Below are positions 4,483 through 56,899 of a stretch of DNA of 64,000 nt, in pieces. The notes beneath the pieces are model-generated. The model had not been told where the DNA came from. It saw only the letters and a program-made list of their open reading frames with translations, and did not search any database. Origin of the DNA: an uncultured Prevotellaceae bacterium (GTDB lineage: Bacteria; Bacteroidota; Bacteroidia; Bacteroidales; Bacteroidaceae); NCBI GenBank assembly GCA_900313705.1, contig OMSJ01000001.1:15115-79114 (forward strand). Reading direction: 5' to 3'. Both the position numbers and the translations under genes were made by a program. Position 1 is the stretch's first letter; each line of letters opens with the position of its first letter.

Positions 4483-5202
4483 ATGAAGATAGGCGACCAG
4501 GTGCGCTTCCTCTCCGAGGTGGGAGGAGGCAGAGTGAGTGGCTTCCAGGGGAAGAACATTGTCCTTGTCGAGGATGAGGACGGGTTTGAAATTCCGATGC
4601 TGGTGCAGGATGTCGTGGTTGTCGGCAACGAGGAATACGACAGCAGCAAGGTGAATACGATAGAGAGGGAAAAGCCTCTCTCCAAGACTCCCATCAAAGC
4701 GAGGGAACAAGAAGACCATGAAGAGAAGCCGATTACTTTCAAGCCAAAGCCTCTCGAAAGGCGTGAGGGGGAACGGCTCAACCTTTACCTGTCTTTCCTG
4801 CCAGACGACATCAAGGAAATCTCCAGCACGGGCTTCGAGTCGTACCTTGTGAACGACAGCAACTACTACATGCAGGTATCGTTGCTCAGCGCGGAAGGTG
4901 CGAGCTGGCATCTGCGCTTCTGCGGTGTCCTGGAGCCCAACAGCAAGCTCTTTGTAGAGGCTTTCGACCGCATGCAGGTCAACGACTTGGAACATCTATG
5001 CGTACAGGCCATCGCCTGGAAGCAGGACAAGCCGTTCCAACTGAAGCCTGCCATAACAACAGAACTTCGCCTCAACCTGACGAAGTTCTATAAACTGCAT
5101 GTCTTCCACCCAAATGAGTTCTTTGGTGAACCCAACTGGACGGAAGACATTATCCGTGACGACAAGCCTGTGCGCAGTGCCTGGTCGATACAGGAGTCTT
5201 AG
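4483..5202 (+). CDS. DUF2027-like conserved hypothetical protein
   Basis: 239 aa. The N-terminus MKIGDQVRFLSEVGGGRVSGFQGKNIVLVEDEDGFEIPML matches my recollection of Bacteroidales DUF2027 proteins. The TAG stop is the first unit of the GGTTAGA repeat array. Confidence 0.55.
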   Translation: MKIGDQVRFLSEVGGGRVSGFQGKNIVLVEDEDGFEIPMLVQDVVVVGNEEYDSSKVNTIEREKPLSKTPIKAREQEDHEEKPITFKPKPLERREGERLNLYLSFLPDDIKEISSTGFESYLVNDSNYYMQVSLLSAEGASWHLRFCGVLEPNSKLFVEAFDRMQVNDLEHLCVQAIAWKQDKPFQLKPAITTELRLNLTKFYKLHVFHPNEFFGEPNWTEDIIRDDKPVRSAWSIQES

Positions 5203-5346
5203 AGGTGGTTAGAGGTAAGAGGTTAGAGGTTAGGGGTTAGAGGTTAGAGGTTAGGGGTTAGAGGTTAGGGGTTAGAGGAATGTTTCGGGCTTTGATAACA
5301 GCCCCAAAGTATTCTCTAACCCCTAACCTCTTACCTCTTACCACTA
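5201..5346. repeat. Hairpin element with GGTTAGA/GGTTAGG heptamer-repeat arms, copy 1
   Basis: The left arm at 5201-5278 is about 11 tandem heptamers. The right arm at 5311-5346 is the complementary array. It starts on the TAG stop of the + gene and ends 4 nt from the stop of the - gene. Confidence 0.9.
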
Positions 5347-5349
5347 AAA

Positions 5350-7123: not shown

Positions 7124-7146
7124 GATGCTTTATTATTGAGGTCTTT

Positions 7147-7184
7147 GGTTATGACGTTATAACATTATTTCGTTATGACGACGG
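7147..7184. repeat. GTTATGAC-type octamer micro-array, copy 1
   Basis: GGTTATGACGTTATAACATTATTTCGTTATGACGACGG, in the spacer between two co-directional genes. Confidence 0.85.
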
Positions 7185-7193
7185 TTAGTTTCA

Positions 7194-11550: not shown

Positions 11551-13810
<2,260 letters not shown>

Positions 13811-14563
13811 ATGAAGACCCTCTCTAACTCTCCCTTAAAGGGAGAGGACTCTGGTTCGCAAGTCTCCCCTTTAAGGGGCAATTGCCCGTTAGAAGCGGAG
13901 CAATTGGGGAGCGTCAGCGACGGAGGCCCGAAGGGTTTAGAAGGGTCTTTGCCTTGCTGCTACCTCGCACCTGTCTCCCACTATAGCGCTTACTATCGTG
14001 CCGATGAGGTGCGCCTTGAGGTCTGCGACAACTTTACGAAGCAGACGCTTCGCAACCGCTGCTACATCGACAGCCCGAATGGAGCGCTTGCCCTCACCAT
14101 CCCTGTCGTCAAGACAGAAGGCAAGACGATGATGAAGGACATACGCATCAGCGACCACGGCAACTGGCGCCACCAGCATTGGGTGGCTCTCGAGAGCAGC
14201 TACAGGCAATCGCCTTTCTTCGAATACTATGCCGATGACTTCGCTCCTTTCTACGAGAAGAAGTGGGAGTTCCTTGCCGACTTCAACGAGGAGCTCATGA
14301 TGTTGGTTGCTTCGTTGCTCGATATTGAGAAGCCCATCAAAAGGACTCAAGCCTTCAGCCCCCTCCCCGCTCCCCCTTTGGGGGAGTGCCACAATCCCAC
14401 TGGACAAGGAAGTTTTGGCGGCAACGGAGCACTCCCCCAAAGGGGGAGCGGGGAGGGGGCTCCCTACTACCAAGTCTTCGCCTCGCGTCACGGCTTCCTG
14501 CCCGACCTCAGCATCGTCGATTTGCTCTTTAACCAAGGACCGGAGGGCGTGCTATGGCTGTAA
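13811..14563 (+). CDS. WbqC-family protein
   Basis: The core YLAPVSHYSAYYRADEVRLEVCDNFTKQTLRNRCYIDSPNGALALTIPV is typical of the WbqC family. The first 46 codons are repeat-element derived, so a TTG start at 13949 is an alternative. A 103-bp palindromic element is inserted in frame near the C-terminus. Confidence 0.75.
   Translation: MKTLSNSPLKGEDSGSQVSPLRGNCPLEAEQLGSVSDGGPKGLEGSLPCCYLAPVSHYSAYYRADEVRLEVCDNFTKQTLRNRCYIDSPNGALALTIPVVKTEGKTMMKDIRISDHGNWRHQHWVALESSYRQSPFFEYYADDFAPFYEKKWEFLADFNEELMMLVASLLDIEKPIKRTQAFSPLPAPPLGECHNPTGQGSFGGNGALPQRGSGEGAPYYQVFASRHGFLPDLSIVDLLFNQGPEGVLWL
13815..13948. repeat. AGACCC...GGGTCT palindromic MITE-like element, copy 1 (134 bp, two inner hairpins)
   Basis: Termini AGACCCTCTCTAAC / GTTTAGAAGGGTCT are inverted repeats. 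Inner hairpins are TCTCCCTTAAAGGGAGA and TCCCCTTTAAGGGG. It lies in the 5' part of the wbqC ORF. Confidence 0.85.
14358..14460. repeat. 103-bp GC-rich palindromic element, copy A
   Basis: Arms GCCCCCTCCCCGCTCCCCCTTTGGGGGAGTGC and its exact complement enclose a 39-nt loop. In frame inside wbqC. Confidence 0.9.
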
Positions 14564-16170
14564 CTGTTCATCCCCTCCCCGCCGATGTGCAAGGCGTATC
14601 TCCGCCTTGCCAGTTCACCTATCCTTTCTGCTACGAGCCACACCCTCTCTGCATCGCAGCAGCAGACGGGGTGCGCCGTTACCTCGACCAGCATCCCGAA
14701 TGGCACGACGAGCTCCAACGCGGCAAGATGTTCGGGGTGCTGATAGTGGAGGGGGCTTTCCTCGCTGCCTTCTCCGGCACACTCGATGGCAAGACGCAGC
14801 ATGAATACTTCGTGCCGCCAGTCTTCGACCTCATGGCGCCTGGCTGTCATTTCCAAGAGGAAGAGGCTGCCATTAGCATCATCAACCATAAGATAGCCTT
14901 TCTCGAAGCCTCGCTTAAGCCAAGCCCTTTGCGTCAGCAGATGCAGGAAGAGCTTGCCGCCTACAAGGTGTTCATGCAGCAAAGCAAGGCCAAGCGAGAT
15001 GCCCTGCGCCAAAGCTCCTCCCTAAAGGGGGAGGACGGAAGGGGGCTGTTCCTCATCAAGGAGAGCCAGCACCAGAAGGCAGAGTTCCGTCGGCTGAAGC
15101 AAGTTTGGGAACAACGCATATCGAAAGAGGAGGCACCACTTCGGGAACAAGAAGCACAGATAGCGCAACTGCAAGAGGAGCGGCAAGAGCGCAGCCAGGC
15201 CTTGCAGCAATGGCTCTTCCAGCAGTTCAGGTTCCTCAACGCCTTAGGCGAGACCCGTACCTTGCCTGAACTCTTCTCGCCTGCCGTGCCGCCATCCGGT
15301 GCTGGGGAATGCTGTGCGCCACGGCTTCTGCAAGCTGCCTATCGGGAAGGACTAAAGCCGCTCTGCATGGCTGAGTTCTGGGTGGGTGCTTCGCCTAAAG
15401 ACGAGTTGCGCATCGACGGACATTACTATCCTGCCTGCAACAGCAAGTGCCGTCCGATTCTCCGGCACATGCTGAAAGGTCTTGACGTCGAGCCTAACCC
15501 TTTGCTTGCGAATCAGGAGACGTTGCTCTCCCAACTACACATTATATATAATAATAAGGAGCTGGCCGTGGTGAGCAAGCCTGCCGGGATGCTCTCCGTG
15601 CCAGGCAAGGAGGAGCTGCCCAACGTGCAGGATGCCATGCGACAGATGTTCCCTTGGGCCACCGGACCGCTCATCGTCCATCGTCTCGATATGGACACCA
15701 GCGGCCTCATGCTCGTCGCTCTCACCGAAGAGAAGTACCATGAACTGCAGGACCTCTTCCTCCGCCGCCGCATCCATAAGGTCTATCATGCCCTGCTCGA
15801 GCGGGAGATGCCCGTCGGACAGGAAGGTGACATCTGTCTGCCCCTTCGTCCCGACATCGACGACCGCCCGAGGCAGATGGTTGACCCGAAGCACGGCAAG
15901 CCGGCACAGACGCATTATCGTGTGCTGGCAAACAAGGATGGACATGCCCTGCTCGAGCTCAGGCCGATAACAGGCCGCACACATCAGCTCCGCGTCCATT
16001 GTGCCCATCCCCTCGGCCTTGGCAACCCCATCGTAGGGGATAGGCTTTATGGCAAGCCTGCAGAAAGACTTATGCTCCATGCTTACAGCATAACCATAGA
16101 GACCCCAAACTCCCCTTTAGGGGGAGTAATGTTCAACGATCAATGTTCAATGTTCAATGATAAAGCTTGA
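14554..16170 (+). CDS. RluA-family pseudouridine synthase with long N-terminal extension
   Basis: 538 aa. Catalytic motif HRLDMDTSGLML plus TGRTHQLRVH. The last ~20 residues (NSPLGGVMFNDQCSMFNDKA) are encoded by a hairpin element plus a TGTTCAA array. Confidence 0.85.
   Translation: MAVTVHPLPADVQGVSPPCQFTYPFCYEPHPLCIAAADGVRRYLDQHPEWHDELQRGKMFGVLIVEGAFLAAFSGTLDGKTQHEYFVPPVFDLMAPGCHFQEEEAAISIINHKIAFLEASLKPSPLRQQMQEELAAYKVFMQQSKAKRDALRQSSSLKGEDGRGLFLIKESQHQKAEFRRLKQVWEQRISKEEAPLREQEAQIAQLQEERQERSQALQQWLFQQFRFLNALGETRTLPELFSPAVPPSGAGECCAPRLLQAAYREGLKPLCMAEFWVGASPKDELRIDGHYYPACNSKCRPILRHMLKGLDVEPNPLLANQETLLSQLHIIYNNKELAVVSKPAGMLSVPGKEELPNVQDAMRQMFPWATGPLIVHRLDMDTSGLMLVALTEEKYHELQDLFLRRRIHKVYHALLEREMPVGQEGDICLPLRPDIDDRPRQMVDPKHGKPAQTHYRVLANKDGHALLELRPITGRTHQLRVHCAHPLGLGNPIVGDRLYGKPAERLMLHAYSITIETPNSPLGGVMFNDQCSMFNDKA
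16108..16157 (+). repeat. Hairpin ACTCCCCTTTAGGGGGAGT followed by (TGTTCAA)x4 heptamer array
   Basis: Hairpin at 16108-16127. Array TGTTCAA CGATCAA TGTTCAA TGTTCAA at 16130-16157. Encodes the C-terminus of the RluA-like protein and contains the first base of the ATG of the next gene. Confidence 0.85.
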
Positions 16171-17760: not shown

Positions 17761-18750
17761 CTACGAACTAAGCCAGCGCTCAATGTTGCGCATCAAGCCG
17801 TCGTACTTGGCACGCTTGACGGCAGAACCCTTGAAAAGCATTCGGTACTGCTCCACCGTGAGCGTTTTCCAGCCGTCGGGCGTCATCTGCAGAAGCGCTT
17901 CGGAAGGTTGGAAGGCAGGCTCATCTGTGGGCTTGGCCTCGAGGAACTGCGGCGTGGCGCGCAGGCAGCGGTCGCATCCGTAGAAAGTAGGGCCGAGACG
18001 TAAATCCTCGGGAAGTGGACCGCGATGCTCGATGGTCTGATAGCTGATGCAGCGACGCGCATCGAGTCCTTCAGATGTGAGGGCAGGACAGATAGTCCCC
18101 CCAGAAGCCCCCTCCCCGCTCCCCCTTTGGGGGAGTGCCTCAATCTCGCTGGACAGGGAAGCTTTGGCGGCAATGGAGCACTCCCCCAAAGGGGGAGCGG
18201 GGAGGGGGCTTTGGAGGGGGCTTTGGAGAGGGCTGTCGTAGTGGTCGGCCTTGGCAGTCAGGAAAAGCTCTCCGAGGAAGACCGTCGGTCCGTAGCCGGG
18301 CACGCTGAGGAAGCCGCCTTTGGGGGTGATGATGCCGATGCCACTCCGCCATGCCCAGTAGCGCTCGAGGACAGGTGCTGTATCGACAAAGCAACGCCCT
18401 TCGAGGTGGAGCTCCTGCATGAGCTGGTTCATTCTCTGCCGCATGACGTCGTGATAGTCCAGCCCTTGTGCATAAAGGCTGATGGCTGGCTGTTGGTGCC
18501 GAGGCATGAAGTTCATGGCAAGGCTGACAATCGTCTGCACCCCCGGCACAAGGCGGTCGGGATGAAGGCGCATATCGACGTTGCGGCGCATGTAGTCCAT
18601 CCCTGCACAATAGTCGAGCTCAAGCCAATGGCGGAAACGGGCAGCATAGTCCTCTGCCACGGCTTCTGCCTTAGCAAGGCCACATGCAACAAAGCCCAAG
18701 CGCAAGGCCTGGGCTTTGATGTCGTTGCTATTCAATAATGCCGAACTCAT
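17761..18750 (-). CDS. queG: Epoxyqueuosine reductase QueG homologue, probably degenerate
   Basis: 329 aa. N-terminal and C-terminal QueG-like sequence (RRCISYQTIEHRG, GCDRC). A 103-bp palindromic element plus a 12-mer triplication occupies the place of the first CxxCxxCxxxCP motif, and the last Cys of the second motif reads Thr. Confidence 0.8.
   Translation of the reverse strand: MSSALLNSNDIKAQALRLGFVACGLAKAEAVAEDYAARFRHWLELDYCAGMDYMRRNVDMRLHPDRLVPGVQTIVSLAMNFMPRHQQPAISLYAQGLDYHDVMRQRMNQLMQELHLEGRCFVDTAPVLERYWAWRSGIGIITPKGGFLSVPGYGPTVFLGELFLTAKADHYDSPLQSPLQSPLPAPPLGECSIAAKASLSSEIEALPQRGSGEGASGGTICPALTSEGLDARRCISYQTIEHRGPLPEDLRLGPTFYGCDRCLRATPQFLEAKPTDEPAFQPSEALLQMTPDGWKTLTVEQYRMLFKGSAVKRAKYDGLMRNIERWLSS
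18107..18233. repeat. 103-bp GC-rich palindromic element, copy B, plus 12-mer x3 tandem
   Basis: 18107-18209 has the same arms and length as copy A, and the loop differs at a few positions. It is followed by GGAGGGGGCTTT-type 12-mers up to 18233. In frame inside queG on the opposite strand. Confidence 0.9.
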
Positions 18751-19377: not shown

Positions 19378-19410
19378 GCGTCATCACGTTATAACGTCAT
19401 AACGATATGG
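19378..19410. repeat. GTTATGAC-type octamer micro-array, copy 2
   Basis: GCGTCATCACGTTATAACGTCATAACGATATGG. Confidence 0.8.
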
Positions 19411-19454
19411 CGACACAACGTAACTCCGGCTTCTCGCCTTTACATCTCATCGGT

Positions 19455-26951: not shown

Positions 26952-27063
26952 CGGCACCATCATTCCCCCTATCAACTCTTTACATCTCCTTCATGCCCTC
27001 CAAACGGTCAGTTATAGAGGAGAAAGCACAGAGTATCGCAAAACGCAGTACCCCCATGGAAAG

Positions 27064-27146
27064 AAGTACGTGTACTTGTTGCCATAAGTACGTGTACTTA
27101 TCCGAATAACTACGTGTACTTATCCCCATAAGTACGTGTACTTATC
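27064..27146 (+). repeat. 22-bp tandem repeat x4 (GTACGTGTACTTATCCnnATAA), locus A
   Basis: Unit starts at 27066, 27088, 27110 and 27132, an exact 22-bp phase. Confidence 0.9.
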
Positions 27147-27199
27147 TGACCACTTCCCGAGAGGGGAGCAAGGAGGGGCTTTTGCAGAATATCAAAAGA

Positions 27200-28608: not shown

Positions 28609-28665
28609 TCCTCCCCCTTTGGGGGTCGGGAGGTACTTCCTCCCCCTAAAGGGGGCTGGGGGGTC
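28609..28665. repeat. Intergenic double-hairpin element (CCCCCTTTGGGGG / CCCCCTAAAGGGGG)
   Basis: CCTCCCCCTTTGGGGGTCGGGAGGTACTTCCTCCCCCTAAAGGGGGCTGGGGGGTC. It abuts the stop codon of the M24 peptidase gene. Confidence 0.8.
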
Positions 28666-32539: not shown

Positions 32540-33778
32540 TCAGAAGAGCTTCATTACGCCGCTTGCTGGTCTGCCGGCAAGCAGTTCCTGTCGCATGTAG
32601 TCCATATAGGGTGCGACATGGTGGAAGAATATCTGATAACCTGCGCAAAGATAGTTAAGCCCTGGTTCGCCATCGGCTGTCCTGAGGAAGCGCAGACGGG
32701 GACATTCTCCGTGACAGGCCTTGAGCCAAGGACATTCGCGGCACTGACGAGGGAGAGCCTCCTTCTTCAGTCGGCTGAAGCGGTTCTGCTTGGTGCCATA
32801 GAGCATCTGCGGCAGGCCATTCGTGCGTATGTTACCTAATTTATATTGTGGGAAGACGAAGTGGTCGCAGGAATAGACATCGCCGTTGTGCTCCATGACT
32901 GCGGCATGTCCACACTCTTCGGCATAGACGCAGACGCCGGGCTCTGCGCCCATCCAGCCTGCGAGGGTGGCATCAAAGAGCTGCACAAAGACTTCGCCTA
33001 CATCATGGCGCACCCATTCGTCGAAGATGGCACACATAAAATGTCCCCATTCTTCGGGTCGGATACTGAAGGGGGCTATGGGACAATCTTCATCGAAAAG
33101 CTGTGCCAAGTGTCGGCCATCGCTATGCTGCTTGATGCGTTCTACGACGGGACTTATCTGGAGGAACTTACATTGCAGTTCATCGCGAAAGAAGTGGTAA
33201 AAGGCAAGGGGGTCTTGTGCATTATGATGATTGGCTGTCGCCATTGCGTTCCACTCCACGCCATAGTCGTTCAAGAGCTTGATGCCGTCCATCACCTTCT
33301 GCCATGTTCCCCGACCCTGAACATCGAGTCGGTAGGCATCGTGCTGCTCCTGGGTGCCGTCGATGCTGATGCCCACGAGCCATCCTTCGTCGTGGAGGAA
33401 CTGGCACCACTCTGGGGTGAGCAAGGTGCCGTTTGTCTGTATGCTGTTGCTGATGCGCTTGCCTCGTCCATAATAGCGTTGCAGCCGGACTGCCTGTTTG
33501 TAGAAGCTGAGGGGCCTGAGCATGGGCTCGCCTCCGTGCCAGGTGAAGAGTACATCGGGCATCTGCTGCACCTGGATATAGTCGCGGATGTATTGCTCCC
33601 AGACCCTCTCTAACTCCCCCTTAAATGGGGAGGACTCTCTTCCTTTAAGGGAGGGTTGGGGAGGGTCTAAATGCTGCTTCTCCAAATAGTAGCAATACTC
33701 GCATCGCAGATTACACGTTGGTCCTGCAGGCTTGGCCATAACATAAAGCGGGCGGGCGAAAGGATAGGCAGTTTGCAT
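32540..33778 (-). CDS. Anaerobic sulfatase-maturating enzyme (radical SAM, SPASM domain)
   Basis: 412 aa. Radical-SAM motif CNLRCEYCYY and Cys-rich SPASM C-terminus. Carries an in-frame 68-bp palindromic element (PSLKGRESSPFKGELERV). Confidence 0.85.
   Translation of the reverse strand: MQTAYPFARPLYVMAKPAGPTCNLRCEYCYYLEKQHLDPPQPSLKGRESSPFKGELERVWEQYIRDYIQVQQMPDVLFTWHGGEPMLRPLSFYKQAVRLQRYYGRGKRISNSIQTNGTLLTPEWCQFLHDEGWLVGISIDGTQEQHDAYRLDVQGRGTWQKVMDGIKLLNDYGVEWNAMATANHHNAQDPLAFYHFFRDELQCKFLQISPVVERIKQHSDGRHLAQLFDEDCPIAPFSIRPEEWGHFMCAIFDEWVRHDVGEVFVQLFDATLAGWMGAEPGVCVYAEECGHAAVMEHNGDVYSCDHFVFPQYKLGNIRTNGLPQMLYGTKQNRFSRLKKEALPRQCRECPWLKACHGECPRLRFLRTADGEPGLNYLCAGYQIFFHHVAPYMDYMRQELLAGRPASGVMKLF
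33601..33668. repeat. AGACCC...GGGTCT element, copy 2 (68 bp)
   Basis: AGACCCTCTCTAACTCCCCCTTAAATGGGGAGGACT...CCTTTAAGGGAGGGTTGGGGAGGGTCT, inside the sulfatase-maturase ORF. Confidence 0.85.
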
Positions 33779-33790
33779 GTTATTAATGTA

Positions 33791-33950
33791 TTAAGGATTA
33801 AGGATTAAAGATTAAGGATTAAGGTTTTGTTGATTTGGGAAGTAGGACAGCATTGCATCGGGCTTATTTCTTAATATATTACTTGGTATTTAGGAACCAA
33901 AGCAAACAGCTTTAATCATTAATCTTTAATCCTTAATCCTTAATCTCTAA
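33791..33950. repeat. Hairpin element with TTAAGGA heptamer arms
   Basis: Left arm 33791-33824 (TTAAGGATTAAGGATTAAAGATTAAGGATTAAGG). The complementary right arm at 33910-33950 overlaps the lolE-like stop codon. Confidence 0.85.
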
Positions 33951-35176
33951 TTCAATATCTTGCCTGCAAGATACTTCACCGGATACCATATTGCGAGCCA
34001 GCCGACGGCGAGGACGGTGACGAGGACAAGGAGGATGTCGGTGAGATAGACGCTGACGGGATAGGTCTCGATGATGAAGCTGCCTTCGCTGTCGCCCATC
34101 GTTACGATGCCATACTCTTGCTGAATCCAGCAGAGGACAGTGCCGAGCACCAGTCCGAGCAAGGCTCCGGCAAGGCTGATGATGTGGCCTTCCAAACGGA
34201 AGATGGTACAGATCTGCGAGTCGTTGGCACCAAGGCTGCGGAGTGTCTGGATGTCCTGTCGCTTGTCTATCATCAGCATCGAGAGGGAGCCGATGATGTT
34301 GAAGCAGGCAACGAGCAGGATGAAGGAGAGGAAGAAGTAGGAGATGAGCTTCTCGATGCGCATCACGCGGAAGACATCGTTCTGCTGTTCATAGCGATCC
34401 TCCACCTTGAAGCGCTCGCCGAGCTGTGCCTTTAGCTGTGCCTTCACCTTGTCTGCCTTGAGGCCGTCCTTGAGCTTCAGCTCGACGGACGACACTCTGC
34501 CCTGTCGGTCGAAGAGGCGCTGGGCAAAGCCGAGACTGGTGAGGATGTAGTTGGCATCGTACTTGGCCTGTCTGACCATGAAGACGACGCCCGGGCTTTG
34601 CAGCTCGTCGTGATTGAAGGAGGACAGTGGATTGCCGATGTTGACGCGCTCACCTGGCTTGGGAGCATAGATCTGTAGAGGGTCTTCGAAAAAGGCAGAG
34701 AGGCCCAGTTGCTGAGCCAGTTGTATGCCGAGGACGCCGTACTCCAGGATGTCGGCATGTAGGCAGAAGGAGCCGTCGCCATAGAGGATTTCCTCGATGC
34801 GTGTCTGTTTCGTGAAGTTGTCGGCAACGCCTTTGATGGTCACGACCTGCTGCCGTCCGTTCTGCACCACGAGTGCCTGTCCTTCGAGGACTGGCGTATA
34901 GACTTCCACGGCATCGCTCTTCTTGAGCTCCAGCAGGGCGGCGTCCTTGATGCTGACGGTCTGCCCGTCTGCCGGTGTGACGCGCAGTTCGGCATCGAAT
35001 GCCGTGAAGAGGTCGGCCACGAGGTCCTGGAAGCCGTTGAAGACGCTCAGCGTGACCACCATTGCCATCGTTGCCACAGCCACTCCGAGCACAGAGATGC
35101 CGCTGATGATGTTGATGGCATGGTGGCTCTTCTTGGCGAAGAGGTAGCGGCGAGCTATGAACAATTCATAATTCAT
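33947..35176 (-). CDS. FtsX/LolE-like ABC transporter permease
   Basis: 409 aa. N-terminus MNYELFIARRYLFAKK...INIISGISVLGVAV and a C-terminal FtsX 3-TM block. Confidence 0.85.
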   Translation of the reverse strand: MNYELFIARRYLFAKKSHHAINIISGISVLGVAVATMAMVVTLSVFNGFQDLVADLFTAFDAELRVTPADGQTVSIKDAALLELKKSDAVEVYTPVLEGQALVVQNGRQQVVTIKGVADNFTKQTRIEEILYGDGSFCLHADILEYGVLGIQLAQQLGLSAFFEDPLQIYAPKPGERVNIGNPLSSFNHDELQSPGVVFMVRQAKYDANYILTSLGFAQRLFDRQGRVSSVELKLKDGLKADKVKAQLKAQLGERFKVEDRYEQQNDVFRVMRIEKLISYFFLSFILLVACFNIIGSLSMLMIDKRQDIQTLRSLGANDSQICTIFRLEGHIISLAGALLGLVLGTVLCWIQQEYGIVTMGDSEGSFIIETYPVSVYLTDILLVLVTVLAVGWLAIWYPVKYLAGKILN

Positions 35177-35625: not shown

Positions 35626-35760
35626 AAGAAGATAAATGGAGATAGAAGAAGATAGAAGACGTTAGTTTTTGCAGCCGATAAAGGTATCGTCCTCTATCTT
35701 CGCCGCTGGAAGCGGCATATCTTCCTCTAACTTCCTCTATCTACTTCATCTTTAATCTTC
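35626..35760. repeat. Imperfect hairpin with GATAGAAGAA-type arms
   Basis: AAGAAGATAGAAGAAGATAAATGGAGATAGAAGAAGATAGAAG on the left, CTTCCTCTAACTTCCTCTATCTACTTCATC on the right, with an inner GCCGCT-GGA-AGCGGC hairpin. Confidence 0.75.
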
Positions 35761-37188
35761 CTCGCTGAACATCGGATCCCACGCTGGCAGGCGGATGGGC
35801 TTCTGCTTGAGCAGGTCGAGGACAGAGGCGGGACAGTACCTGCGGTTGGCGACGATGCGGAACATGTACTCGCGGAACCATTCGTCGGTCATGATGATGT
35901 AGCCGTTTGCGCCGCTGGCCGAGCCCCAACTGTTCTCCACCTTCCACTTCGTTGGCTTGCCCTCGCCGTCGAGGTCCACGGCCATGAGGGTCATGGCGTG
36001 CGTGCTGCCGCTGTCGAAGGTCTGGATGCGCTGTTTCTTGTTCATGCCGAAGGTGGTGCCCAGCAGACTGTCGTAGTCGAAGTTCTTGAGGTCGGCGATG
36101 CCCGTGTTGCGGTCGAGGCACTTGCCCACGTCGCAACTGAAGTATATCTGGCTACTGTCCTTGAGCGAAGCGATGGCGATGCTCTCCAGCTCCTCGATGG
36201 GCAGGTTGACGTAGAGCCAGTTGTGCCCGTCATAGACGTGGCGGTCGTAGTCTATCTCATAGACCTTGCCAAAGGGTCGGCTGGGGTCGTTCATCAGCAT
36301 GACGTAGTCCTTGTTGAGGTCCTCGCCCTCGCTGATGCAATAGGTCTTGAAGAAATCGAGGGGAGAAAAGACCCTCTCTAACTCCCCCTTAAAGGGGGAG
36401 GACTGGGGTAGGTCTTTCCAAGTGAATGTTTTTGGCGGTACGCCATAGGCCATGACGAGCATCTTATAGACGGTCTGGAGCTGCTCCACCTTCAGGGCTT
36501 CGAGCTGCTTCTCGCTCATGCCTGCCTCGCTCTTCTCGCGGAGGGTGATGCCGAACTCGCGGAGCTTGCGTTTCAGGTGACCGCAGAACTCGCTGGTACT
36601 GTTGCTGACGTAGGTCTCGGGCATGATGTCGGCAGGCACGACGCCGTATTTCGTGGCGAGGTCGGCCACGCCTGTGTAGGTGCCGCCGTCGGAGAGTGGG
36701 TGCTGGAAGAGCCAGCGCACCATCTCGCTGTCGATGGCTTCCTTGCGGGTGTCGATGATGCCTTGCAGGAAGAGGTTGCTCTTCTCCAGTTGGTCGTAGA
36801 AGAAGAGGTAGCCCTGGCTGAGCACGAAGTTCTTTGTGCCGAGCTTCTTCATGGCGCGTCCTCTCAGGATATTCAGCCCTGTGAAGAGCCAGCACCGCCC
36901 GCTACTCTTCTGGTCAGTGATTCCAGTATTCTTCACCTCGATGCTGAAGTCCAGATTCTTCGCTCCGGCGTTCTCCTGATTGATGGCCATCTTCTGCAGG
37001 CCGACATTGCTGATGGCGTTGCGGAGGGCCTTCTCGGCGGGTGTAGCGGTGTAGCTGCCTTCGAGCTTCTTCAGCACATCGGGCGTGATGTTCGTCTGGG
37101 CGCAGGCAGTAGAAAGTTGGACATCGAACATTGAACATTGAACTCCTGCTACAGCAAGGAGCAGGGCGCATAGAGTCGTTCTTTTCAT
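35752..37188 (-). CDS. pepC: Aminopeptidase C (bleomycin-hydrolase type C1B peptidase)
   Basis: 478 aa. Catalytic Cys motif QKSSGRCWLFTGLN and C-terminal ENSWG. Carries an in-frame palindromic element (SSPFKGELERV) and a TGTTCAA array in the signal-peptide region. Confidence 0.9.
   Translation of the reverse strand: MKRTTLCALLLAVAGVQCSMFDVQLSTACAQTNITPDVLKKLEGSYTATPAEKALRNAISNVGLQKMAINQENAGAKNLDFSIEVKNTGITDQKSSGRCWLFTGLNILRGRAMKKLGTKNFVLSQGYLFFYDQLEKSNLFLQGIIDTRKEAIDSEMVRWLFQHPLSDGGTYTGVADLATKYGVVPADIMPETYVSNSTSEFCGHLKRKLREFGITLREKSEAGMSEKQLEALKVEQLQTVYKMLVMAYGVPPKTFTWKDLPQSSPFKGELERVFSPLDFFKTYCISEGEDLNKDYVMLMNDPSRPFGKVYEIDYDRHVYDGHNWLYVNLPIEELESIAIASLKDSSQIYFSCDVGKCLDRNTGIADLKNFDYDSLLGTTFGMNKKQRIQTFDSGSTHAMTLMAVDLDGEGKPTKWKVENSWGSASGANGYIIMTDEWFREYMFRIVANRRYCPASVLDLLKQKPIRLPAWDPMFSEED
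36369..36415. repeat. AGACCC...GGTCT element, copy 3 (about 47 bp, single hairpin)
   Basis: AGACCCTCTCTAACTCCCCCTTAAAGGGGGAGGACTGGGGTAGGTCT, inside pepC. The first 36 nt are nearly identical to copy 2. Confidence 0.85.
37124..37144 (-). repeat. (TGTTCAA)x3 heptamer array in pepC signal-peptide region
   Basis: The minus strand reads GTTCAATGTTCAATGTTCGA, encoding QCSMFDV. Confidence 0.8.
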
Positions 37189-37309: not shown

Positions 37310-37881
37310 CCCAAGGGTTTGTTTATCTCTAAGGAGTTGAGGAGTTATAGGAGATTTTCCCTGAGGCGCTGACGCAGTCCTCCTTTGACTCCTTGACTCC
37401 TTAGAATTATTATTGCCTAAGGAGTGAAGGAGGAAGGGAGTACCACAGCGTCTCATGGTACTGCCTTCCAGGCAGCAGGGAGAAAGTTACACGCTGACTC
37501 CGAGGGCTTCGCCCCCGGTTACTAAAAGTAAAGCCCTACAGGCTTTTTTGCCCATCATGGCATTTCCAAGCCCCAAGCAATCTCATCTTGCTCTAAATGC
37601 TGATATTATCGAGGGTGCAGACTATGATGAAAACTTTTAGCGGACAGCAATAAAACTATTTCTCCTTTGACTCCTTGACTCCTTAGAATTGATTATTGCC
37701 TAAGGAGTGAAGGAGGAAGGGAGTTGTTTCGCCAGCGAAACGTTTTCTCCTTTGACTCCTTCGCCAATGGGGTGTTTCTCTCTAAGGAGTTGAGGAGTTA
37801 TAGGAGATTTTCCCTAAAGCGCTGACGCAGTCCTCCTTTGACTCCTTGACTCCTTAGAATTGATTATTGCCCAAGGAGTGA
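37310..37881. repeat. Nest of AAGGAGT/GACTCCT octamer-arm hairpin modules (A-B-C modules)
   Basis: A1 37329-37353, B1 37378-37404, C1 37417-37440; B2 37661-37686, C2 37700-37723; A3 37782-37806, B3 37831-37857, C3 partial 37870-37881. A and C are both complementary to B. Confidence 0.8.
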
Positions 37882-37885
37882 AAAA

Positions 37886-37968
37886 AAGTACGTGTACTTG
37901 TCGCCATAAGTACGTGTACTTATCCGACTAACTACGTGTACTTATTGCCATAAGTACGCGTACTTATC
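37886..37968 (+). repeat. 22-bp tandem repeat x4, locus B (about 90 percent identical to locus A by eye)
   Basis: Unit starts at 37888, 37910, 37932 and 37954. Same orientation and register as locus A. Confidence 0.9.
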
Positions 37969-37980
37969 ACATATAATAAT

Positions 37981-38015
37981 AGAGGGTATGTCCGTTCATG
38001 TTGGACATACCCTCT
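37981..38015 (-). terminator. Hairpin after the 58-aa ORF (13-bp perfect stem)
   Basis: AGAGGGTATGTCC / GGACATACCCTCT with a 9-nt loop. An A/T-rich tail (ATTATTATAT) follows on the minus strand. Confidence 0.55.
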
Positions 38016-43310: not shown

Positions 43311-45041
43311 ATGAGAAAAAGCAACTACGACAAGCAACCCAGCACCCACATCGACGGCAAGGCTGTCATTGGCTGGGACAATATCGTTCAGACACTCAGC
43401 AAAGCTTGGGCTGACGAGCCCGTCTGGGCCATCGACCTCTATCCGGGCACCTACGAGGAGGACTTCATCAACGCCTTTGCCAAGACCGGCCGAAAGATTA
43501 TCAATACCCGCGACCTCATGCGGCCTGAAGAGGAAATCCGACAACTGACGGAACGCTTTATGACCGATGACGTGCTCTTCGGATACATGTCGAACATTCG
43601 CTTACACGAATATTTCGACAATTCAAAATTAATAAATTCAAAATTCAAAATTGAAGAGCCCATTGCCATCATTGGCACAGGCGCAGCCTTCGTCGCCGAG
43701 AAATGGTCAATGGTCAATGGTCAATGGTCAATAGTTTACGCCGACATGGCCCGCTGGGAGATTCAGCAACGCTTCCGCCGACACGAAGTGAAGGCGCTCG
43801 GCATCGACAACCACGAGGACAGTCCCTCGGTGCAATATAAAAGAGGTTACTTCAACGACTGGAACATCATCGACCGCTACAAGGACGAGCTGATGCAGAG
43901 CGGACGCATCGAGTTCTGGATTGACTCGAACCGTCGCGACGAGCCGAAGATGATTACCGACGCGCAGATGCGGCAAGGACTGGAGCGCACGGCTCACAAA
44001 CCTTTCCGCGTCGTTCCCTTCTTCGACCCGGCTCCTTGGGGAGGCCAGTGGATGAAGGAAGTCTGCGACCTGCCTCGCGAGGAGGTGAACTACGGCTGGT
44101 GCTTCGACTGCGTGCCCGAGGAGAACAGCCTCTATCTGGAGGCCGACGGCATGCTCTTCGAACTGCCTTCGCAGGACGTCGTGCTGGCTCACACTCGCGA
44201 GCTGCTCGGACAGCAGGTGTGGCATCGCTTCGGCAAGAGTTTCCCCATCCGCTTCGACTTCCTCGACACCATGCAGGGCGGCAACCTCAGCCTGCAGGTG
44301 CATCCCACCAACGAGTTCGCACAGAAGGAGTTCGGTCTGCCCTACACGCAGGACGAGAGCTACTATCTGCTTGATGCTGGCGAGGATGCGGTGGTCTATC
44401 TCGGCCTGAAAGAAGGCATCGACAAGGTGCAGATGATAGAGGACCTGCGGGCTGCCCAGCGGGGCGAGATTCTGTTCGACGCCGAGAAGTACGTCAACAA
44501 ATTGCCTGCCAAGAAGCACGACCACTACCTCATCCCCGCCGGCACCATCCATTGCTCCGGCCACGACAGCATGGTGCTCGAGATAAGCTCTACGCCCAGC
44601 ATCTTCACCTTCAAGCTATGGGACTGGGCACGCCTCGGACTGGACGGCAAGCCAAGGCCCATCAACGTGGAGCGCGGCAAGTTCGTCATCCAATGGGAGC
44701 GCACCACATCCTTCGTCAAGTCGCAAATAGCCAACCACTTCGAGGTATTGAGCGAGGAAGAAGGCATCAAGGAAGAGCGGACCGGACTGCATCCCAACGA
44801 GTTCATCGAGACGCGGAGGCACACCTTCACTCGTCCCGTAGAGCACGACACGCGTGGCGGCGTCAACGTCCTCAACCTCGTTGATGGCGAAGCAGCACTC
44901 ATCGAGAGTCCCGAAGGCAAGTTCGAGCCCTTTGAGGTGCACTATGCCGAGACCTTCATCATCCCCGCTTGCGTAGGGCGCTACACCATCAAGCCCCTCG
45001 ACAAGGAGTGCATGACAATCAAGGCATACGTGAGAGCCTGA
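43311..45041 (+). CDS. Class I mannose-6-phosphate isomerase-like protein (long form)
   Basis: 576 aa. Cupin/PMI signature LSLQVHPTNEFAQKEFGLPYTQDESYY. Contains an in-frame (TGGTCAA)x4 array (WSMVNGQWS). Confidence 0.7.
   Translation: MRKSNYDKQPSTHIDGKAVIGWDNIVQTLSKAWADEPVWAIDLYPGTYEEDFINAFAKTGRKIINTRDLMRPEEEIRQLTERFMTDDVLFGYMSNIRLHEYFDNSKLINSKFKIEEPIAIIGTGAAFVAEKWSMVNGQWSIVYADMARWEIQQRFRRHEVKALGIDNHEDSPSVQYKRGYFNDWNIIDRYKDELMQSGRIEFWIDSNRRDEPKMITDAQMRQGLERTAHKPFRVVPFFDPAPWGGQWMKEVCDLPREEVNYGWCFDCVPEENSLYLEADGMLFELPSQDVVLAHTRELLGQQVWHRFGKSFPIRFDFLDTMQGGNLSLQVHPTNEFAQKEFGLPYTQDESYYLLDAGEDAVVYLGLKEGIDKVQMIEDLRAAQRGEILFDAEKYVNKLPAKKHDHYLIPAGTIHCSGHDSMVLEISSTPSIFTFKLWDWARLGLDGKPRPINVERGKFVIQWERTTSFVKSQIANHFEVLSEEEGIKEERTGLHPNEFIETRRHTFTRPVEHDTRGGVNVLNLVDGEAALIESPEGKFEPFEVHYAETFIIPACVGRYTIKPLDKECMTIKAYVRA
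43704..43731 (+). repeat. (TGGTCAA)x4 heptamer array inside the isomerase ORF
   Basis: Four perfect units encoding WSMVNGQWS. Confidence 0.95.
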
Positions 45042-45054
45042 GCCCCCTGCGAAC

Positions 45055-45097
45055 TGTCGTCATAACGAAATAACGATAAAACGTCATAACGAAAAAC
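45055..45097. repeat. GTTATGAC-type octamer micro-array, copy 3 (inverted)
   Basis: TGTCGTCATAACGAAATAACGATAAAACGTCATAACGAAAAAC. Confidence 0.85.
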
Positions 45098-45111: not shown

Positions 45112-46206
45112 ATGAGTAAAGACAAGAAAATCGTGCTGACCCTCGATGCGGGCGGCACCAACTTCGTTTTCTCCGCCATTTGCAACAATGAGGAGATTGT
45201 GGAACCTGTTCGCCTGAAGGCTGTCACCACCGACACCGAGGGCTGCCTGGCTACCCTTGTGCAAGGCTTCACCACCGTCAAGGAGAAACTCGGCACAGAA
45301 CCCGTTGCCATCAGCTTCGCCTTCCCCGGCCCTGCAGACTACGAGCGTGGCGTCATCGGCGACTTGCCCAACTTCCCCTCCTTCCGAGGCGGCGTAGCGC
45401 TCGGTCCGTACCTGGAGAGCGTCTTCAAGATTCCTGTGTATGTAAACAACGACGGCAACCTCTTTGCCTACGGCGAAGCTCTGGCAGGTGCCCTGCCCAG
45501 AGTGAACAAAGCTCTGGAGGAGGCTGGCTGCAAGCGTCGCTACAAGAACATGGTGGGCATCACCCTCGGCACAGGTTTCGGCTGCGGCGTGGTGATAGAC
45601 AAGGTGCTGCTGACGGGCGACAACGGTTGCGGCGGCGACGTCTGGTGTATGCGCAACGGCATGTATCCCTTCGTCATCGCAGAGGAAAGCGTCAGCATCC
45701 GTGCCGTCCGCAGGGTATATGCTGAGATGTCGCACGAAGAGATAGGCGACCTCACGCCCAAGGACATCGGCGACATTGCCAATGGCACACGTCCCGGCAA
45801 CCAGAAGGCCGCACAGGAGAGTTTCCGCCAGTTAGGTCAGGTCACGGCAGCCGCTCTGGTAAATGTGCTGAACATCGTCGATGGCATCGTCGTCATCGGT
45901 GGCGGTCTCTCGCACAACTCGAAGTGGATTCTGCCCGGCATGATGGAGGAGTTCGCACGTCCGGCAGGCACCTTCACCGGCAACCTGCTTCCCACGCTCC
46001 AGTCGGAGGTCTATAACTTCGAAGACGAAGAGCAGCGAGCAGCCTTCCTCGAGGACAAGGATGTCTATGTCGATGTGCCTCATTCGGACCAGAAGGTGCT
46101 CTACCAAGCCCAGCGCAAGGTGGCCGTTCTGGTGTCGGAACTGGGTGCCAGCAAAGCCATCAACCTGGGCGCCTACAACTTCGCACTTAATCAGTTGGGA
46201 CAATGA
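45112..46206 (+). CDS. ROK-family sugar kinase
   Basis: 364 aa. N-terminal ATP-binding LTLDAGGTNFVFSAI and ROK-like GFGCGVV. Confidence 0.85.
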   Translation: MSKDKKIVLTLDAGGTNFVFSAICNNEEIVEPVRLKAVTTDTEGCLATLVQGFTTVKEKLGTEPVAISFAFPGPADYERGVIGDLPNFPSFRGGVALGPYLESVFKIPVYVNNDGNLFAYGEALAGALPRVNKALEEAGCKRRYKNMVGITLGTGFGCGVVIDKVLLTGDNGCGGDVWCMRNGMYPFVIAEESVSIRAVRRVYAEMSHEEIGDLTPKDIGDIANGTRPGNQKAAQESFRQLGQVTAAALVNVLNIVDGIVVIGGGLSHNSKWILPGMMEEFARPAGTFTGNLLPTLQSEVYNFEDEEQRAAFLEDKDVYVDVPHSDQKVLYQAQRKVAVLVSELGASKAINLGAYNFALNQLGQ

Positions 46207-46306
46207 CCCCCCAACCCCCTTTAGGGGGAGGGAAAGAAACATTAGTATAACCCTTAACAAAAATCCCTCCGACCGTAATCTCCCCCCTAAAGGGGGTCGG
46301 GGGGTG
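46205..46306. repeat. Intergenic MITE-like element with hairpin-containing terminal inverted repeats
   Basis: The left end ACCCCCCAACCCCCTTTAGGGGGAGGGA is the inverted counterpart of the right end TCCCTCCGACCGTAATCTCCCCCCTAAAGGGGGTCGGGGGGT. It fills the ROK-MFS spacer. Confidence 0.8.
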
Positions 46307-46312
46307 TGAATT

Positions 46313-47491
46313 ATGAATAAGAAGTTAATCCCCGTCATGCTATGCTTCTTCGCCATGGGCTTCGTCGATATGGTAGGCATAGCAAGCAACTATGTAAAAG
46401 AGGACTTGAACCTCACCGACTCGATGGCCAACACGCTGCCATCGCTTGTGTTCCTCTGGTTCCTCATCTTCAGCATTCCCACGAGTCTGCTGATGAACAA
46501 GATAGGCCGCAAGAATACCGTCCTGCTGAGCCTTGTTATGACCCTTGTGGCAATGGCGATTCCGGTATTCACCCTCGATTTCACCATGCTGCTGCTCTCC
46601 TTCTCCCTTTTGGGAATAGGCAACGCCATCCTTCAGACCTCGCTCAACCCGTTGGTTGATAGCGTGATGAAAGGCGGAGCATCAGCCAGCACCCTGACCT
46701 TTGGGCAGTTCATCAAGAGCATCGCCTCGTTCCTGGCTCCCATCATTGCCTCTTGGGGAGCTACGACGAATGCTTTCGGCTTGGGTTGGCAGGCACTCTA
46801 TCCTATATATTTATGTGTAGGAGTTGTGGCAACGCTGCTGCTCTTCGGAACGAAGATAACAGACCCCTCTAAATCTCCCCTTAAAGGGGAGACTTCCTGC
46901 GCAGGCTCCTCCCCTTTAAGGGGAGGTTGGGTAGGGTCTTTTGCCTTGCTGGGCAATCCCTTCATCCTGCTTTGCTTCCTCGCCATCATCTGCCATGTAG
47001 GCATTGATGTCGGCACCAGCATCACAGCCCCGAAGATCCTGATGGAGCGCACCGGCATGAGCCTCAACGATGCCGCCTTCGTCTGCACCATCTACTTTGT
47101 GGCCAAGGCTGCAGGCAGCTTCAGCGGTAGCTTCATCATGGGTTTCCTCAAGGACTGGACCTTCCTACTCCTGAGTGTCCTGTTGATGGTGGCAGCCGCC
47201 TTCGGCCTCATCTACGGAGAGAGCACCGCCGTCATCTATGCCAGCGTTGCCTTGATGGGCTTCGGCAATGGCAATCCCTTCAGCATCATCTTTGCCCGTG
47301 CCATGCAAGCCGTACCGGAGAAGAAGAACGAAGTCAGCGGCCTGCTCATCATGGGCATCTTCGGCGGCACCATCTTCCCGCTTCTGATGGGCTTTGCCAG
47401 CGATGCGATGGGACAGGTGGGTGCCGTCCTCGTCATGAGTGTCGGCATTCTCTACCTGCTTGGCTTCTGGCTACAAGGCAGGAAAGCATAG
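46313..47491 (+). CDS. MFS sugar transporter (glucose/galactose or fucose permease-like)
   Basis: 392 aa and about 12 TM helices. The central loop carries an in-frame 79-bp palindromic element (DPSKSPLKGETSCAGSSPLRGGWVGS). Confidence 0.85.
   Translation: MNKKLIPVMLCFFAMGFVDMVGIASNYVKEDLNLTDSMANTLPSLVFLWFLIFSIPTSLLMNKIGRKNTVLLSLVMTLVAMAIPVFTLDFTMLLLSFSLLGIGNAILQTSLNPLVDSVMKGGASASTLTFGQFIKSIASFLAPIIASWGATTNAFGLGWQALYPIYLCVGVVATLLLFGTKITDPSKSPLKGETSCAGSSPLRGGWVGSFALLGNPFILLCFLAIICHVGIDVGTSITAPKILMERTGMSLNDAAFVCTIYFVAKAAGSFSGSFIMGFLKDWTFLLLSVLLMVAAAFGLIYGESTAVIYASVALMGFGNGNPFSIIFARAMQAVPEKKNEVSGLLIMGIFGGTIFPLLMGFASDAMGQVGAVLVMSVGILYLLGFWLQGRKA
46861..46939. repeat. AGACCC...GGGTCT element, copy 4 (79 bp)
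   Basis: AGACCCCTCTAAATCTCCCCTTAAAGGGGAGACT...CTCCTCCCCTTTAAGGGGAGGTTGGGTAGGGTCT, inside the MFS ORF. Confidence 0.85.
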
Positions 47492-48173: not shown

Positions 48174-48297
48174 AATTAAGAATTAAGAGATAGGAATTAA
48201 GAATTTGCTATTGTTCAAAGATCTTTAATCTTTAATCCTTAATCTTTAATCCTTAATCTTTAATCCTTAATCTTTAATCTTTAATCTTTATTCCCTC
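48174..48297. repeat. AATTAAG / TAATCTT-TAATCCT heptamer arrays
   Basis: 48221-48297 is about 11 tandem heptamers of the same family as 33910-33950. A short AATTAAG array lies at 48174-48205. Confidence 0.85.
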
Positions 48298-50802: not shown

Positions 50803-50810
50803 GTAAATTA

Positions 50811-50918
50811 AGGTTTAAGAGGTTAGAGGTTAGAGGTTAGGGGTTAGAGGATACCTCTGGAAGCTGACATGCTGCCAAGACAATTCTCTAACCCCTAACC
50901 TCTTACCTCTTACCACTA
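50811..50918. repeat. Hairpin element with GGTTAGA heptamer arms, copy 2
   Basis: Left arm 50811-50850. The right arm at 50883-50918 is identical over 36 nt (ATTCTCTAACCCCTAACCTCTTACCTCTTACCACTA) to 5311-5346. A partial arm is also present at 58211-58230. Confidence 0.9.
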
Positions 50919-56835: not shown

Positions 56836-56850
56836 AGTTCTTCTTATTTT

Positions 56851-56890
56851 TGTCGTTATGACGTTATAACGTTATTCCGTTATGACGCGA
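56851..56890. repeat. GTTATGAC-type octamer micro-array, copy 4
   Basis: TGTCGTTATGACGTTATAACGTTATTCCGTTATGACGCGA. Confidence 0.85.
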
Positions 56891-56899
56891 TGGTTTTGC

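Follow-up and report, generated by a model that had tools for sequence, protein, structure and literature searches.

How does the same short palindromic sequence come to lie, in frame, within unrelated protein genes of one bacterium? [quoted passage not shown] The window was compared with loci and proteins of its relatives, which carry L and P numbers, respectively. The AGACCC elements turned out to be repeated DNA built of interchangeable hairpin modules. They probably represent a selfish or neutral non-autonomous repeat, resembling both REPINs (inverted doublets of repetitive extragenic palindromic, or REP, sequences) and Rickettsia palindromic elements, which is filtered by selection and survives in genes in frame and at permissive sites only.

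The unit of the family, as read from 114 copies, is a ~35-nt module in which the terminal AGACCC is separated by a 6–8-nt spacer from a 6–8-bp GC-rich stem closed by a TTAAA or TTTAA loop. The modules fall into at least four subtypes, which are freely combined:

M1: AGACCCTCTCTAAC-TCCCCC
M2: AGACCCCTCTAAA-TCTCCCC
M3: AGACCCTTCCAAA-CCTCCCC
M4: AGACCC(A/T)CCCCAGC-CCTCCC

Two modules in inverted orientation, joined by a linker of 0 to ~40 nt, make up a full element; solo modules and nested or tandem combinations were also seen. Across 109 distinct modules, 95–100% of cells were paired at stem positions 1–8 and 88% at position 9. At positions 6–8, C-G and T-A pairs had been exchanged jointly on both sides of the stem, with 95–98% of cells paired.

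All four copies were found at the coordinates assigned to them in the original prediction, each inside a long open reading frame (ORF) whose translation runs through the element free of stops in the host frame. The copies and their host genes are as follows:

13815–13948, plus strand: copy 1, a 134-nt composite with an M1 module at the left, then a linker, then at the right an M2-type module split by a 54-nt inner insert
33601–33668, plus strand: copy 2, the canonical 68-nt form, M1 and M4 modules with zero linker
36369–36415, plus strand: copy 3, 47 nt, the 68-nt form minus a 21-nt internal deletion
46861–46939, plus strand: copy 4, 79 nt, M2-type and M3-type modules
13811–14563, plus strand: wbqC-like host gene, Pfam WbqC at residues 58–182, with copy 1 at its 5′ end and an element of a second family at 14357–14461
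32540–33778, minus strand: radical-SAM/SPASM host gene, anaerobic sulfatase maturase-like, Pfam Radical_SAM at 19–196 spanning the insertion and SPASM at 292–350
35752–37188, minus strand: aminopeptidase C host gene (pepC), Pfam Peptidase_C1_2 at 34–473 spanning the insertion
46313–47491, plus strand: MFS transporter host gene, Pfam MFS_1 at 11–354 spanning the insertion

The 36-nt left end AGACCCTCTCTAACTCCCCCTTAAAGGGGGAGGACT recurred with 2, 1 and 0 mismatches at 13815, 33601 and 36369, respectively, which is beyond chance, as no match arose in 100 shuffles. The copy at 46861–46939 starts with the related module AGACCCCTCTAAATCTCCCCTTAAAGGGGAGA instead; a module-profile hidden Markov model recognized its left end with E=9e-6 and its inverted right end with E=2e-7. 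Rather than a single uniform element, the four copies represent combinations of at least four module subtypes. In each of them, as had been proposed, the ends are inverted repeats of each other and one or two C4–5/G4–5 hairpins lie inside. The sequence TTTGCCTTGCTG located 3′ of copies 1 and 4 belongs to the hosts and lies outside the element. Single-strand DNA folds of the 68-, 79- and 134-nt copies, and of the 105-nt elements described below, each gave one long hairpin, left module against right, with −35.1 kcal/mol and z = −5.3 for copy 1 and z-scores of −3.5 and −5.0 for copies 2 and 4; the hairpin of the 47-nt copy 3, folded alone, was insignificant (z = −0.9). A search of the window against Rfam 15 at gathering score gave no match to the elements, with one tRNA as the sole match.

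Copy 1 is situated between the lepB stop codon (13808–13810) and the WbqC core. L129 has the 80-nt M1+M2 form at this junction, and copy 1 is that form enlarged by a 54-nt piece in the right module; the identical 134-nt composite occurs also in a histidine-kinase-like ORF of L001. The earlier description of this copy as the first 46 codons of wbqC holds only if ATG 13811 is the start codon; its location is the junction of the lepB stop and the wbqC start. Because of the TAAATG arrangement, the lack of a downstream ATG and the form of the orthologues, ATG 13811 is likely to be the wbqC start in the window, and copy 1 would then constitute a 46-residue N-terminal extension, with translation from this codon giving MKTLSNSPLKGEDS...GLEGSLPCCY. 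Copy 2 occupies the loop directly after the CxxxCxxC motif of the maturase, encoded on the minus strand, and codes for DPPQPSLKGRESSPFKGELERV. Copy 3, in the minus-strand aminopeptidase C / bleomycin-hydrolase-like gene, codes for LPQSSPFKGELERV, and the peptide SSPFKGELERV is indeed common to the maturase and the peptidase. Alignment of aminopeptidase C to bleomycin hydrolase 7v5l placed the insert in a stretch of variable length among homologues; an AlphaFold2 model of the protein, made from a 27-row alignment, had a mean pLDDT of 45.5, too low for use. Copy 4 codes for DPSKSPLKGETSCAGSSPLRGGWVGS in the central loop of the MFS transporter.

Orthologue comparisons bore out the claim that these segments are repeated DNA and not a sign of protein homology: close orthologues lack the segment or have other variants of it, and distant orthologues never carry it, so the same peptides do not recur at the same positions in distant genera. 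At pepC, orthologues 85–88% identical and devoid of the element read FTWKD-K(S/T)YTPQEFF. P0001–P0003 and L109 read ...KDLPQPSLKGRESSPF/SKGELERV(F/Y)(S/T)P..., P0004 has a close variant, and the window has a shortened form. The full 68 nt are present at this site in L064 and L109, and the element is absent from L106, L107 and L108 as well as from P0007, P0008, P0011, P0017, P0020 and P0028. Relative to the syntenic L064, the window has a 21-nt internal deletion between flanks that are ~96% identical. At the maturase site, L106 has no element and its loop, QHLSERQQAGMTDKLLEQY, is like that of distant relatives; L109 contains an element in the orientation opposite to that of the window, encoding TLSNSPLKGEDSLPLREGLGGS, and L108 a decayed copy. 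The alignment of MFS orthologues included 384-aa forms without an element and 392-, 399- and 407-aa forms with different module pairs; P0121 and P0122 were 100% and 99% identical to the window protein.

The lepB–wbqC junction and the loops were compared over 80 orthologous wbqC loci from rumen metagenomes. In many lineages (L114, L116, L118, L123 and L133 among them) the junction is compact, with a TAATG stop/start overlap followed by M-x-(x)-L-P-C-C-Y. Elsewhere it is filled by an 80- or 134-nt AGACCC element, by other GC-hairpin families, by single hairpins plus heptamer repeats or by inverted octamer arrays, some of these elements being in frame with an upstream ATG and others containing stops, with a downstream ATG used. 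Similarly, the ancestral C-terminal loop of WbqC, EGDAFAQLPxFExR, is kept in distant relatives, and in close relatives elements of several subfamilies or in-frame 9-nt/7-nt repeats stand in its place. An RluA-like site of the relatives holds 35–80-nt elements of several subfamilies, and some alleles of this site and of the wbqC loop keep only 8–15 nt resembling element ends. The window has a probable remnant of a hairpin element at this hot spot:

14748–14755, plus strand: GGAGGGGG, at the RluA-like hot spot

Two pairs of loci with 96–98% identical flanks bear quite different repeats at one site; the repeats of L023 and L115 differ between flanks ~97% identical. The same permissive loops, termini and gene junctions hold one element in one lineage and another elsewhere, and copies are lost by internal deletion, leaving remnants.

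A scan with an exact 25-mer of the left M1 module against one genome per species located, among the matches listed, more than 105 further places in ~20 metagenome-assembled genomes (MAGs). The carrier MAGs came from the rumen of sheep, goat, deer, reindeer, buffalo and yak, and their titles were Prevotella, Prevotellaceae, Bacteroidaceae or Bacteroidales, except for one bin titled Paludibacteraceae. Copies were dispersed in the genomes at about one per 10–15 kb. AGACCC copies numbered ~1 per 10 kb where WbqC identity was 84% or higher and 4 in the 64 kb of the window, and none was present in 209 kb from relatives with 76% WbqC identity or less. The family is therefore a lineage-restricted one of rumen Prevotellaceae. 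A collection of 2.9 million viral contigs contained one exact left-module match, at 906–930 of L110 (IMG/VR UViG_3300031993_000436). This contig may be a prophage or a host fragment. The Paludibacteraceae MAG, outside Prevotellaceae by its title, holds two copies (L028 and L059), for which horizontal transfer or a binning error is possible. A solo M1 module was also seen at the same place in the secretion-like C-terminal tails of the L017, L056, L063, L069 and L081 proteins, within ...TLSNSPLKGE(D/N)IYN(V/L)AGQ(R/K)L...GINIVNGKK...; the one shared position in several tails suggests that the module became fixed in a tail domain that was then copied.

How the elements sit in coding sequence was examined in the sampled copies. 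The M1 module offers one stop-free frame per orientation, reading (K)TLSNSPLKGE(D/N) or SSPFKGELERV. Stop-free spans of 450 nt or more enclose 101 of the 114 copies, each read in its single open frame, and TLSNSPLKGE is the frame used in 92 of the 114 copies, the other frame being used in 22. For whole elements, an open frame of at least 150 nt on both sides was found in 71 of 103 cases, compared with 71% of random positions in the same loci; with a limit of at least 60 nt the values were 90 of 103 and 84%. Elements are therefore genic about as often as expected from chance placement, in contrast to REPs and MITEs, by which genes are avoided. The AGACCC-to-GGGTCT lengths cluster at 68, 71, 74, 80, 83, 89, 92, 95 and 101 nt, and 65 of 86 lengths equal 2 mod 3, so that the single flanking base needed to complete the first codon brings them to multiples of three. 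The base preceding the element, at position −1, was A at 58% of loci but T at just 2 of 76, where T would create a TAG stop. The inserts are distributed along the host proteins and do not favor the termini exclusively; in the orthologue alignments of pepC, the maturase, the MFS transporter and the wbqC loop, the insertion sites are length-variable loops. Pfam gave domain matches to either side of the insert in seven further hosts, all of them ordinary enzymes (a Mur-ligase/FolC-like protein, an RlmI-type methyltransferase, the adenylosuccinate lyase PurB, histidyl-tRNA synthetase, RmlD, a U5-methyltransferase and an amidohydrolase). From the open frames and the three-base length steps we infer that genic copies are translated through as inserts rich in Pro, Gly, Ser, Lys and Glu, rather than removed.

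The manner of spread was approached through the element boundaries and through candidate enzymes. No target-site duplication was detected for k = 2–6 at 81 boundary offsets, and a 3-nt direct repeat flanked the element in at most 3 of 76 loci. This absence argues against MITE transposition of the DDE type and fits the single-strand transposition by Y1 (HUH) enzymes of REPs and of the insertion sequences (IS) IS200/IS605. Only ordinary genes, and no parent element, were found between inverted module pairs 0.3–5 kb apart in the window and the loci of relatives (~1.2 Mb). With no target-site duplication and no parent IS found in these sequences, the MITE label of the original prediction is unproven. 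Searches by tblastn with approximate sequences of IS200 TnpA and E. coli RayT returned noise only. A motif scan of 1.26 Mb (window plus loci) identified one HUH/Y1 protein, encoded at 4918–6141 of L078, with 407 aa and the motifs DHIH, WQ and YVKDNP; its best 120 homologues were 73–99% identical, and one of them had been named RayT by JGI. The RayT-like gene, conserved and single-copy in carrier genomes other than that of the window, encodes 389–454 aa in the loci compared (L078, and L191, L193, L194 and L195 at 3001 onward). In three of four contexts it is positioned between hflX and the fumarate hydratase gene, including the carrier MAGs UBA4336 (L193) and RGIG4467 (L195), and in L078 an element lies 440 nt upstream of it. 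We consider this gene a reasonable candidate mobilizer, put forward tentatively and as nothing more. Some subclasses of RAYTs (REP-associated tyrosine transposases) that are centered on Bacteroidetes are reported to have atypical flanking structures (PMC6006769), and RAYT genes without flanking REPs have been reported too, as have intragenic REPs forming a minority in several species (PMC3733652). The RayT-like proteins vary in length because of a loop of tandem repeats (GENAAKVHGEG...) that separates the HUH motif from the Tyr motif.

Among known systems, two resemble the AGACCC family most instructively. Rickettsia palindromic elements (Ogata et al. 2000), as presented in two later accounts (PMC10969869, PMC3733652), are likewise palindromic repeats lying in frame in many unrelated, apparently functional genes and non-coding themselves; neither family has an assigned mobilizing enzyme, and the inserts are thought to occupy permissive places of proteins. 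According to the same accounts, they differ in belonging to Alphaproteobacteria with an obligate intracellular life, whereas the AGACCC family belongs to free-living rumen anaerobes of Bacteroidota, and in a length of about 100–150 nt versus 47–134 nt. The AGACCC family is further set apart by its interchangeable hairpin modules, with about 85–90% of the sampled copies genic. The likeness is an analogy by description and not membership by sequence. REPs and REPINs with their RAYTs share with the AGACCC family the ~35-nt imperfect palindromes, the inverted doublets with a short spacer forming one long hairpin, the presence of several subtypes per genome, the absence of target duplication, and a conserved, single-copy Y1 transposase homologue in carrier genomes that looks vertically inherited (PMC3116915, PMC6006769). 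They differ in that a RAYT gene is typically flanked by repeats, whereas the RayT-like gene here is not and falls below the family cut-offs. Judged by analogy, the AGACCC family behaves like Rickettsia palindromic elements in function and like REPINs in architecture.

Other families are more distant. Intragenic REPs also form hairpins wholly within ORFs of known proteins and have been read as tolerated insertions, but they are the minority of an extragenic family, whereas genic copies dominate among AGACCC elements and their length classes follow the codon period (PMC3733652). The MITEs capable of occasional in-frame fusion (Correia/NEMIS, Nezha, QMITE1 and ERIC) are similarly short and non-autonomous with inverted ends; they have target duplications and/or a parent IS and are mainly intergenic, and neither duplication nor parent IS was found for the AGACCC family (PMC10969869). 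The BrickBuilt/MITEPgRS elements of Porphyromonas gingivalis are small repeats of Bacteroidota too, yet they are larger, IS-related and intergenic, with an architecture unlike that of AGACCC elements, from which they were set apart by description (PMC4596501). In agreement with the original prediction, no earlier description of such a family in Bacteroidota was found in the full-text literature, of which coverage was incomplete, including searches by the encoded peptides. A large computational MITE catalogue mentions Prevotella only for phage-host links (PMC11602168).

Taken together, these results are best explained by the REPIN/Rickettsia palindromic element-like repeat proposed above. Under this explanation, the elements would spread within genomes by a mechanism that leaves no target duplication, most likely as single-stranded hairpins processed by a tyrosine transposase of the Y1 (HUH) type, for which the RayT-like gene would be the candidate, and only in-frame copies at permissive sites would persist in genes. 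A more far-reaching version is possible, and we advance it with clear reserve: a REPIN-like replicator adapted to coding sequence, whose single open frame per orientation, three-base steps and flexible peptide would have evolved for life mainly in genes, with a domesticated Y1 (RayT-like) transposase moving hairpin single strands and with constant turnover at permissive loops as a leading cause of variable loops and termini in rumen Prevotella proteomes. Several observations weigh against the REPIN/Rickettsia palindromic element-like explanation. AGACCC modules lack the classical GTAG/CGTC tag of REPs and start instead with AGACCC, 6–8 nt from the stem, and REPINs are almost wholly extragenic, whereas AGACCC copies are mostly in genes. 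A genic share equal to that of random positions exceeds what plain random insertion followed by purifying selection would leave, so that a target preference or a faster extragenic loss is needed. Sampling with a single exact 25-mer, taken from one module, biases the set of copies to well-kept M1 ones and may also favor those that are well kept in genes. Passage of translation through the element is suggested by open frames in the sequence. The RayT-like protein scored below curated cut-offs (NCBIfam REP_Tyr_transpos with E=1e-7 and 31.7 vs 80 bits; Pfam Y1_Tnp with 22 vs 23 bits), and no modules were found beside its gene in L191, L193, L194 and L195, four of the five loci. Finally, among near-identical genomes no filled/empty pair was clean enough to reveal an exact junction, and the element appears to replace a few host codons at every site (pepC, the maturase and the wbqC loop), because of which transposition itself is inferred.

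This replacement of host codons, with a clean insertion never seen, is what would be expected if the elements spread by recombination and repair, that is, if breaks or stalled forks at fragile loops were patched from ectopic copies by microhomology or gene conversion and the alleles were then shuffled between strains by homologous recombination. The same process would account for end-like bases often retained in "empty" alleles (AAGACCTAC in pepC, ACCC at the wbqC start and GGAGGGGG in the RluA-like gene), for unrelated repeat types, heptamer arrays included, at the same sites between flanks ~97% identical, and for the L109 flank near the pepC insertion being closer to the window than to the near-syntenic L106. 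However, it leaves unexplained both the initial seeding of roughly 200 dispersed sites per genome and the existence of a conserved terminal motif whose distance from the hairpin is fixed, and the remnants are equally explained by hairpin-mediated deletion after ordinary insertion; we therefore regard it as unlikely, although it is the strongest of the rivals. A classical MITE, namely an IS deletion derivative with AGACCC…GGGTCT terminal inverted repeats moved in trans by a DDE transposase, appears improbable. Terminal inverted repeats and small size are in keeping with it, and computational cataloguing of MITEs has covered Prevotella and their phages (PMC11602168). But the target-site duplication was absent at every offset, no transposase-like ORF lay between the inverted module pairs 0.3–5 kb apart in the ~1.2 Mb covered, the supposed ends are whole hairpin modules of several subtypes that combine freely, and the 2.9 million viral contigs yielded a single match.

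Paired changes that maintain the stems, the 92:22 bias to one reading orientation and the solo module at a conserved position in the tails of the secreted L017, L056, L063, L069 and L081 proteins could be taken as signs of a selected function, with the peptide acting as a linker, cleavage or sorting signal or the mRNA hairpin tuning translation or stability, and with repetition reflecting recruitment. This seems very improbable, as close orthologues of housekeeping enzymes differ in the presence of the element, the two orientations at one site give unrelated peptides, copies occur between genes too, and copies decay to remnants; the paired stem changes may instead stem from the need of a transposase for a hairpin or from correction within the palindrome. 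Every carrier sequence seen was a metagenome assembly, which might point to an artefact of MAG assembly or binning through collapsed repeats or chimeric joins. The chance of this is negligible, given that the same in-frame insert was present at the same site in assemblies independent in study, animal and assembler (the window, L119, L064, L109 and P0121–P0125) and that host frames remain intact across the insert.

Four other classes of sequence were considered and rejected. DNA uptake sequences measure 9–12 nt and originate by point mutation, whereas whole 47–134-nt blocks are present or absent here. For intrinsic terminators, the T run is missing, the hairpins being followed by GGAC/GAAC, and most hairpins lie inside ORFs. 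Introns and inteins would require longer elements, and the open frames and three-base steps point to translation. The copies are not arrayed as CRISPR repeats are.

Most known cases of palindromic repeats lying in frame within genes come from Rickettsia, and small populations and relaxed selection are the usual explanation there. Here, comparable repeats occur at high density in abundant free-living rumen Prevotellaceae, and the enzymes affected include essential ones, for example histidyl-tRNA synthetase, adenylosuccinate lyase and a FolC-like ligase. If the REPIN/Rickettsia palindromic element-like explanation is true, relaxed selection may not be needed for such elements to persist in genes, and the family would offer a tractable system for studying the entry of repeats into genes and the tolerance of proteins to 15–45 extra residues, with natural filled, empty and variant alleles already existing for many host proteins. 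In rumen data, the identical peptides that the repeats add to unrelated proteins could then also cause errors in homology searching, gene calling, the choice of start codons and the assembly or binning of metagenomes.

Besides the AGACCC elements, the window contains a second hairpin family, isolated hairpins and several kinds of tandem repeats. The second-family and single-hairpin features are these:

14357–14461, plus strand: second family, copy a, 105 nt, with perfect 33-nt inverted arms AGCCCCCTCCCCGCTCCCCCTTTGGGGGAGTGC, in frame in wbqC
18094–18222, plus strand: second family, copy b, core 18106–18210, 94% identical to copy a, fold z = −9.2
15011–15036, plus strand: single GC hairpin CTCCTCCCTAAAGGGGGAGG, weakly related to the modules (E=0.013) and in frame within the RluA-like ORF
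16104–16158, plus strand: CTCCCCTTTAGGGGGAG, a single hairpin (E=1e-3), then TGTTCAA heptamer repeats; 3′ end of the RluA-like ORF
28617–28665, plus strand: two adjacent GC hairpins, probably intergenic
46205–46300, plus strand: two GC hairpins (at 46205 and 46277) in the spacer upstream of the MFS gene

Copy a replaces the ancestral wbqC loop EGDAFAQLPxFExR and folds with −49.9 kcal/mol (z = −10.2). The core of copy b is in frame in a minus-strand queG-like ORF (17761–18750), which, to either side of the repeat, aligns with epoxyqueuosine reductase of B. subtilis (5d08). As read from its sequence, this ORF lacks the majority of the cysteines in the two CxxCxxCxxxCP iron-sulfur motifs, keeping only ..ICP.. 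and GCDRCLRATP, and may represent either a gene in decay or a divergent paralogue.

Intergenic arrays of 7–8-nt tandem repeats, of the types TTAGAGG/TTAAGGA, GTTATGACG and TGGTCAA, are spread over the window, several of them as two inverted blocks round a short center:

5188–5347, 33784–33961, 48178–48309 and 50795–50918: tandem-repeat arrays, group 1
7141–7186, 19380–19420, 45052–45097 and 56847–56895: tandem-repeat arrays, group 2
16130–16158, 43690–43746, 50568–50602 and 53191–53234: tandem-repeat arrays, group 3

Similar 7–8-nt arrays were observed at the hairpin-element hot spots of related loci, some within ORFs (the RluA-like site of L130 and the wbqC loop of L146). A 9-nt tandem repeat, TGAGCCCCA/TGAGTCCCA, of ~12 units at 12247–12363 ends at the lepB start codon, and in-frame 9-nt repeats fill the wbqC loop in L118, L124 and L128. 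Direct repeats of 22 nt with the palindromic core AAGTACGTGTACTT form clusters of 3–4 at 27013–27168 and 37857–37990, 10.8 kb apart, and look like arrays of protein-binding sites. Between 39064 and 42687, three segments ~1.6 kb apart share 66-nt and 29-nt stretches at 71–83% identity and look like tandem paralogous genes. Local direct repeats were also present at 62327–62549 / 62864–63086 (223 nt, 78% identity) and at 37311–37408 / 37764–37861 (98 nt, 94% identity).

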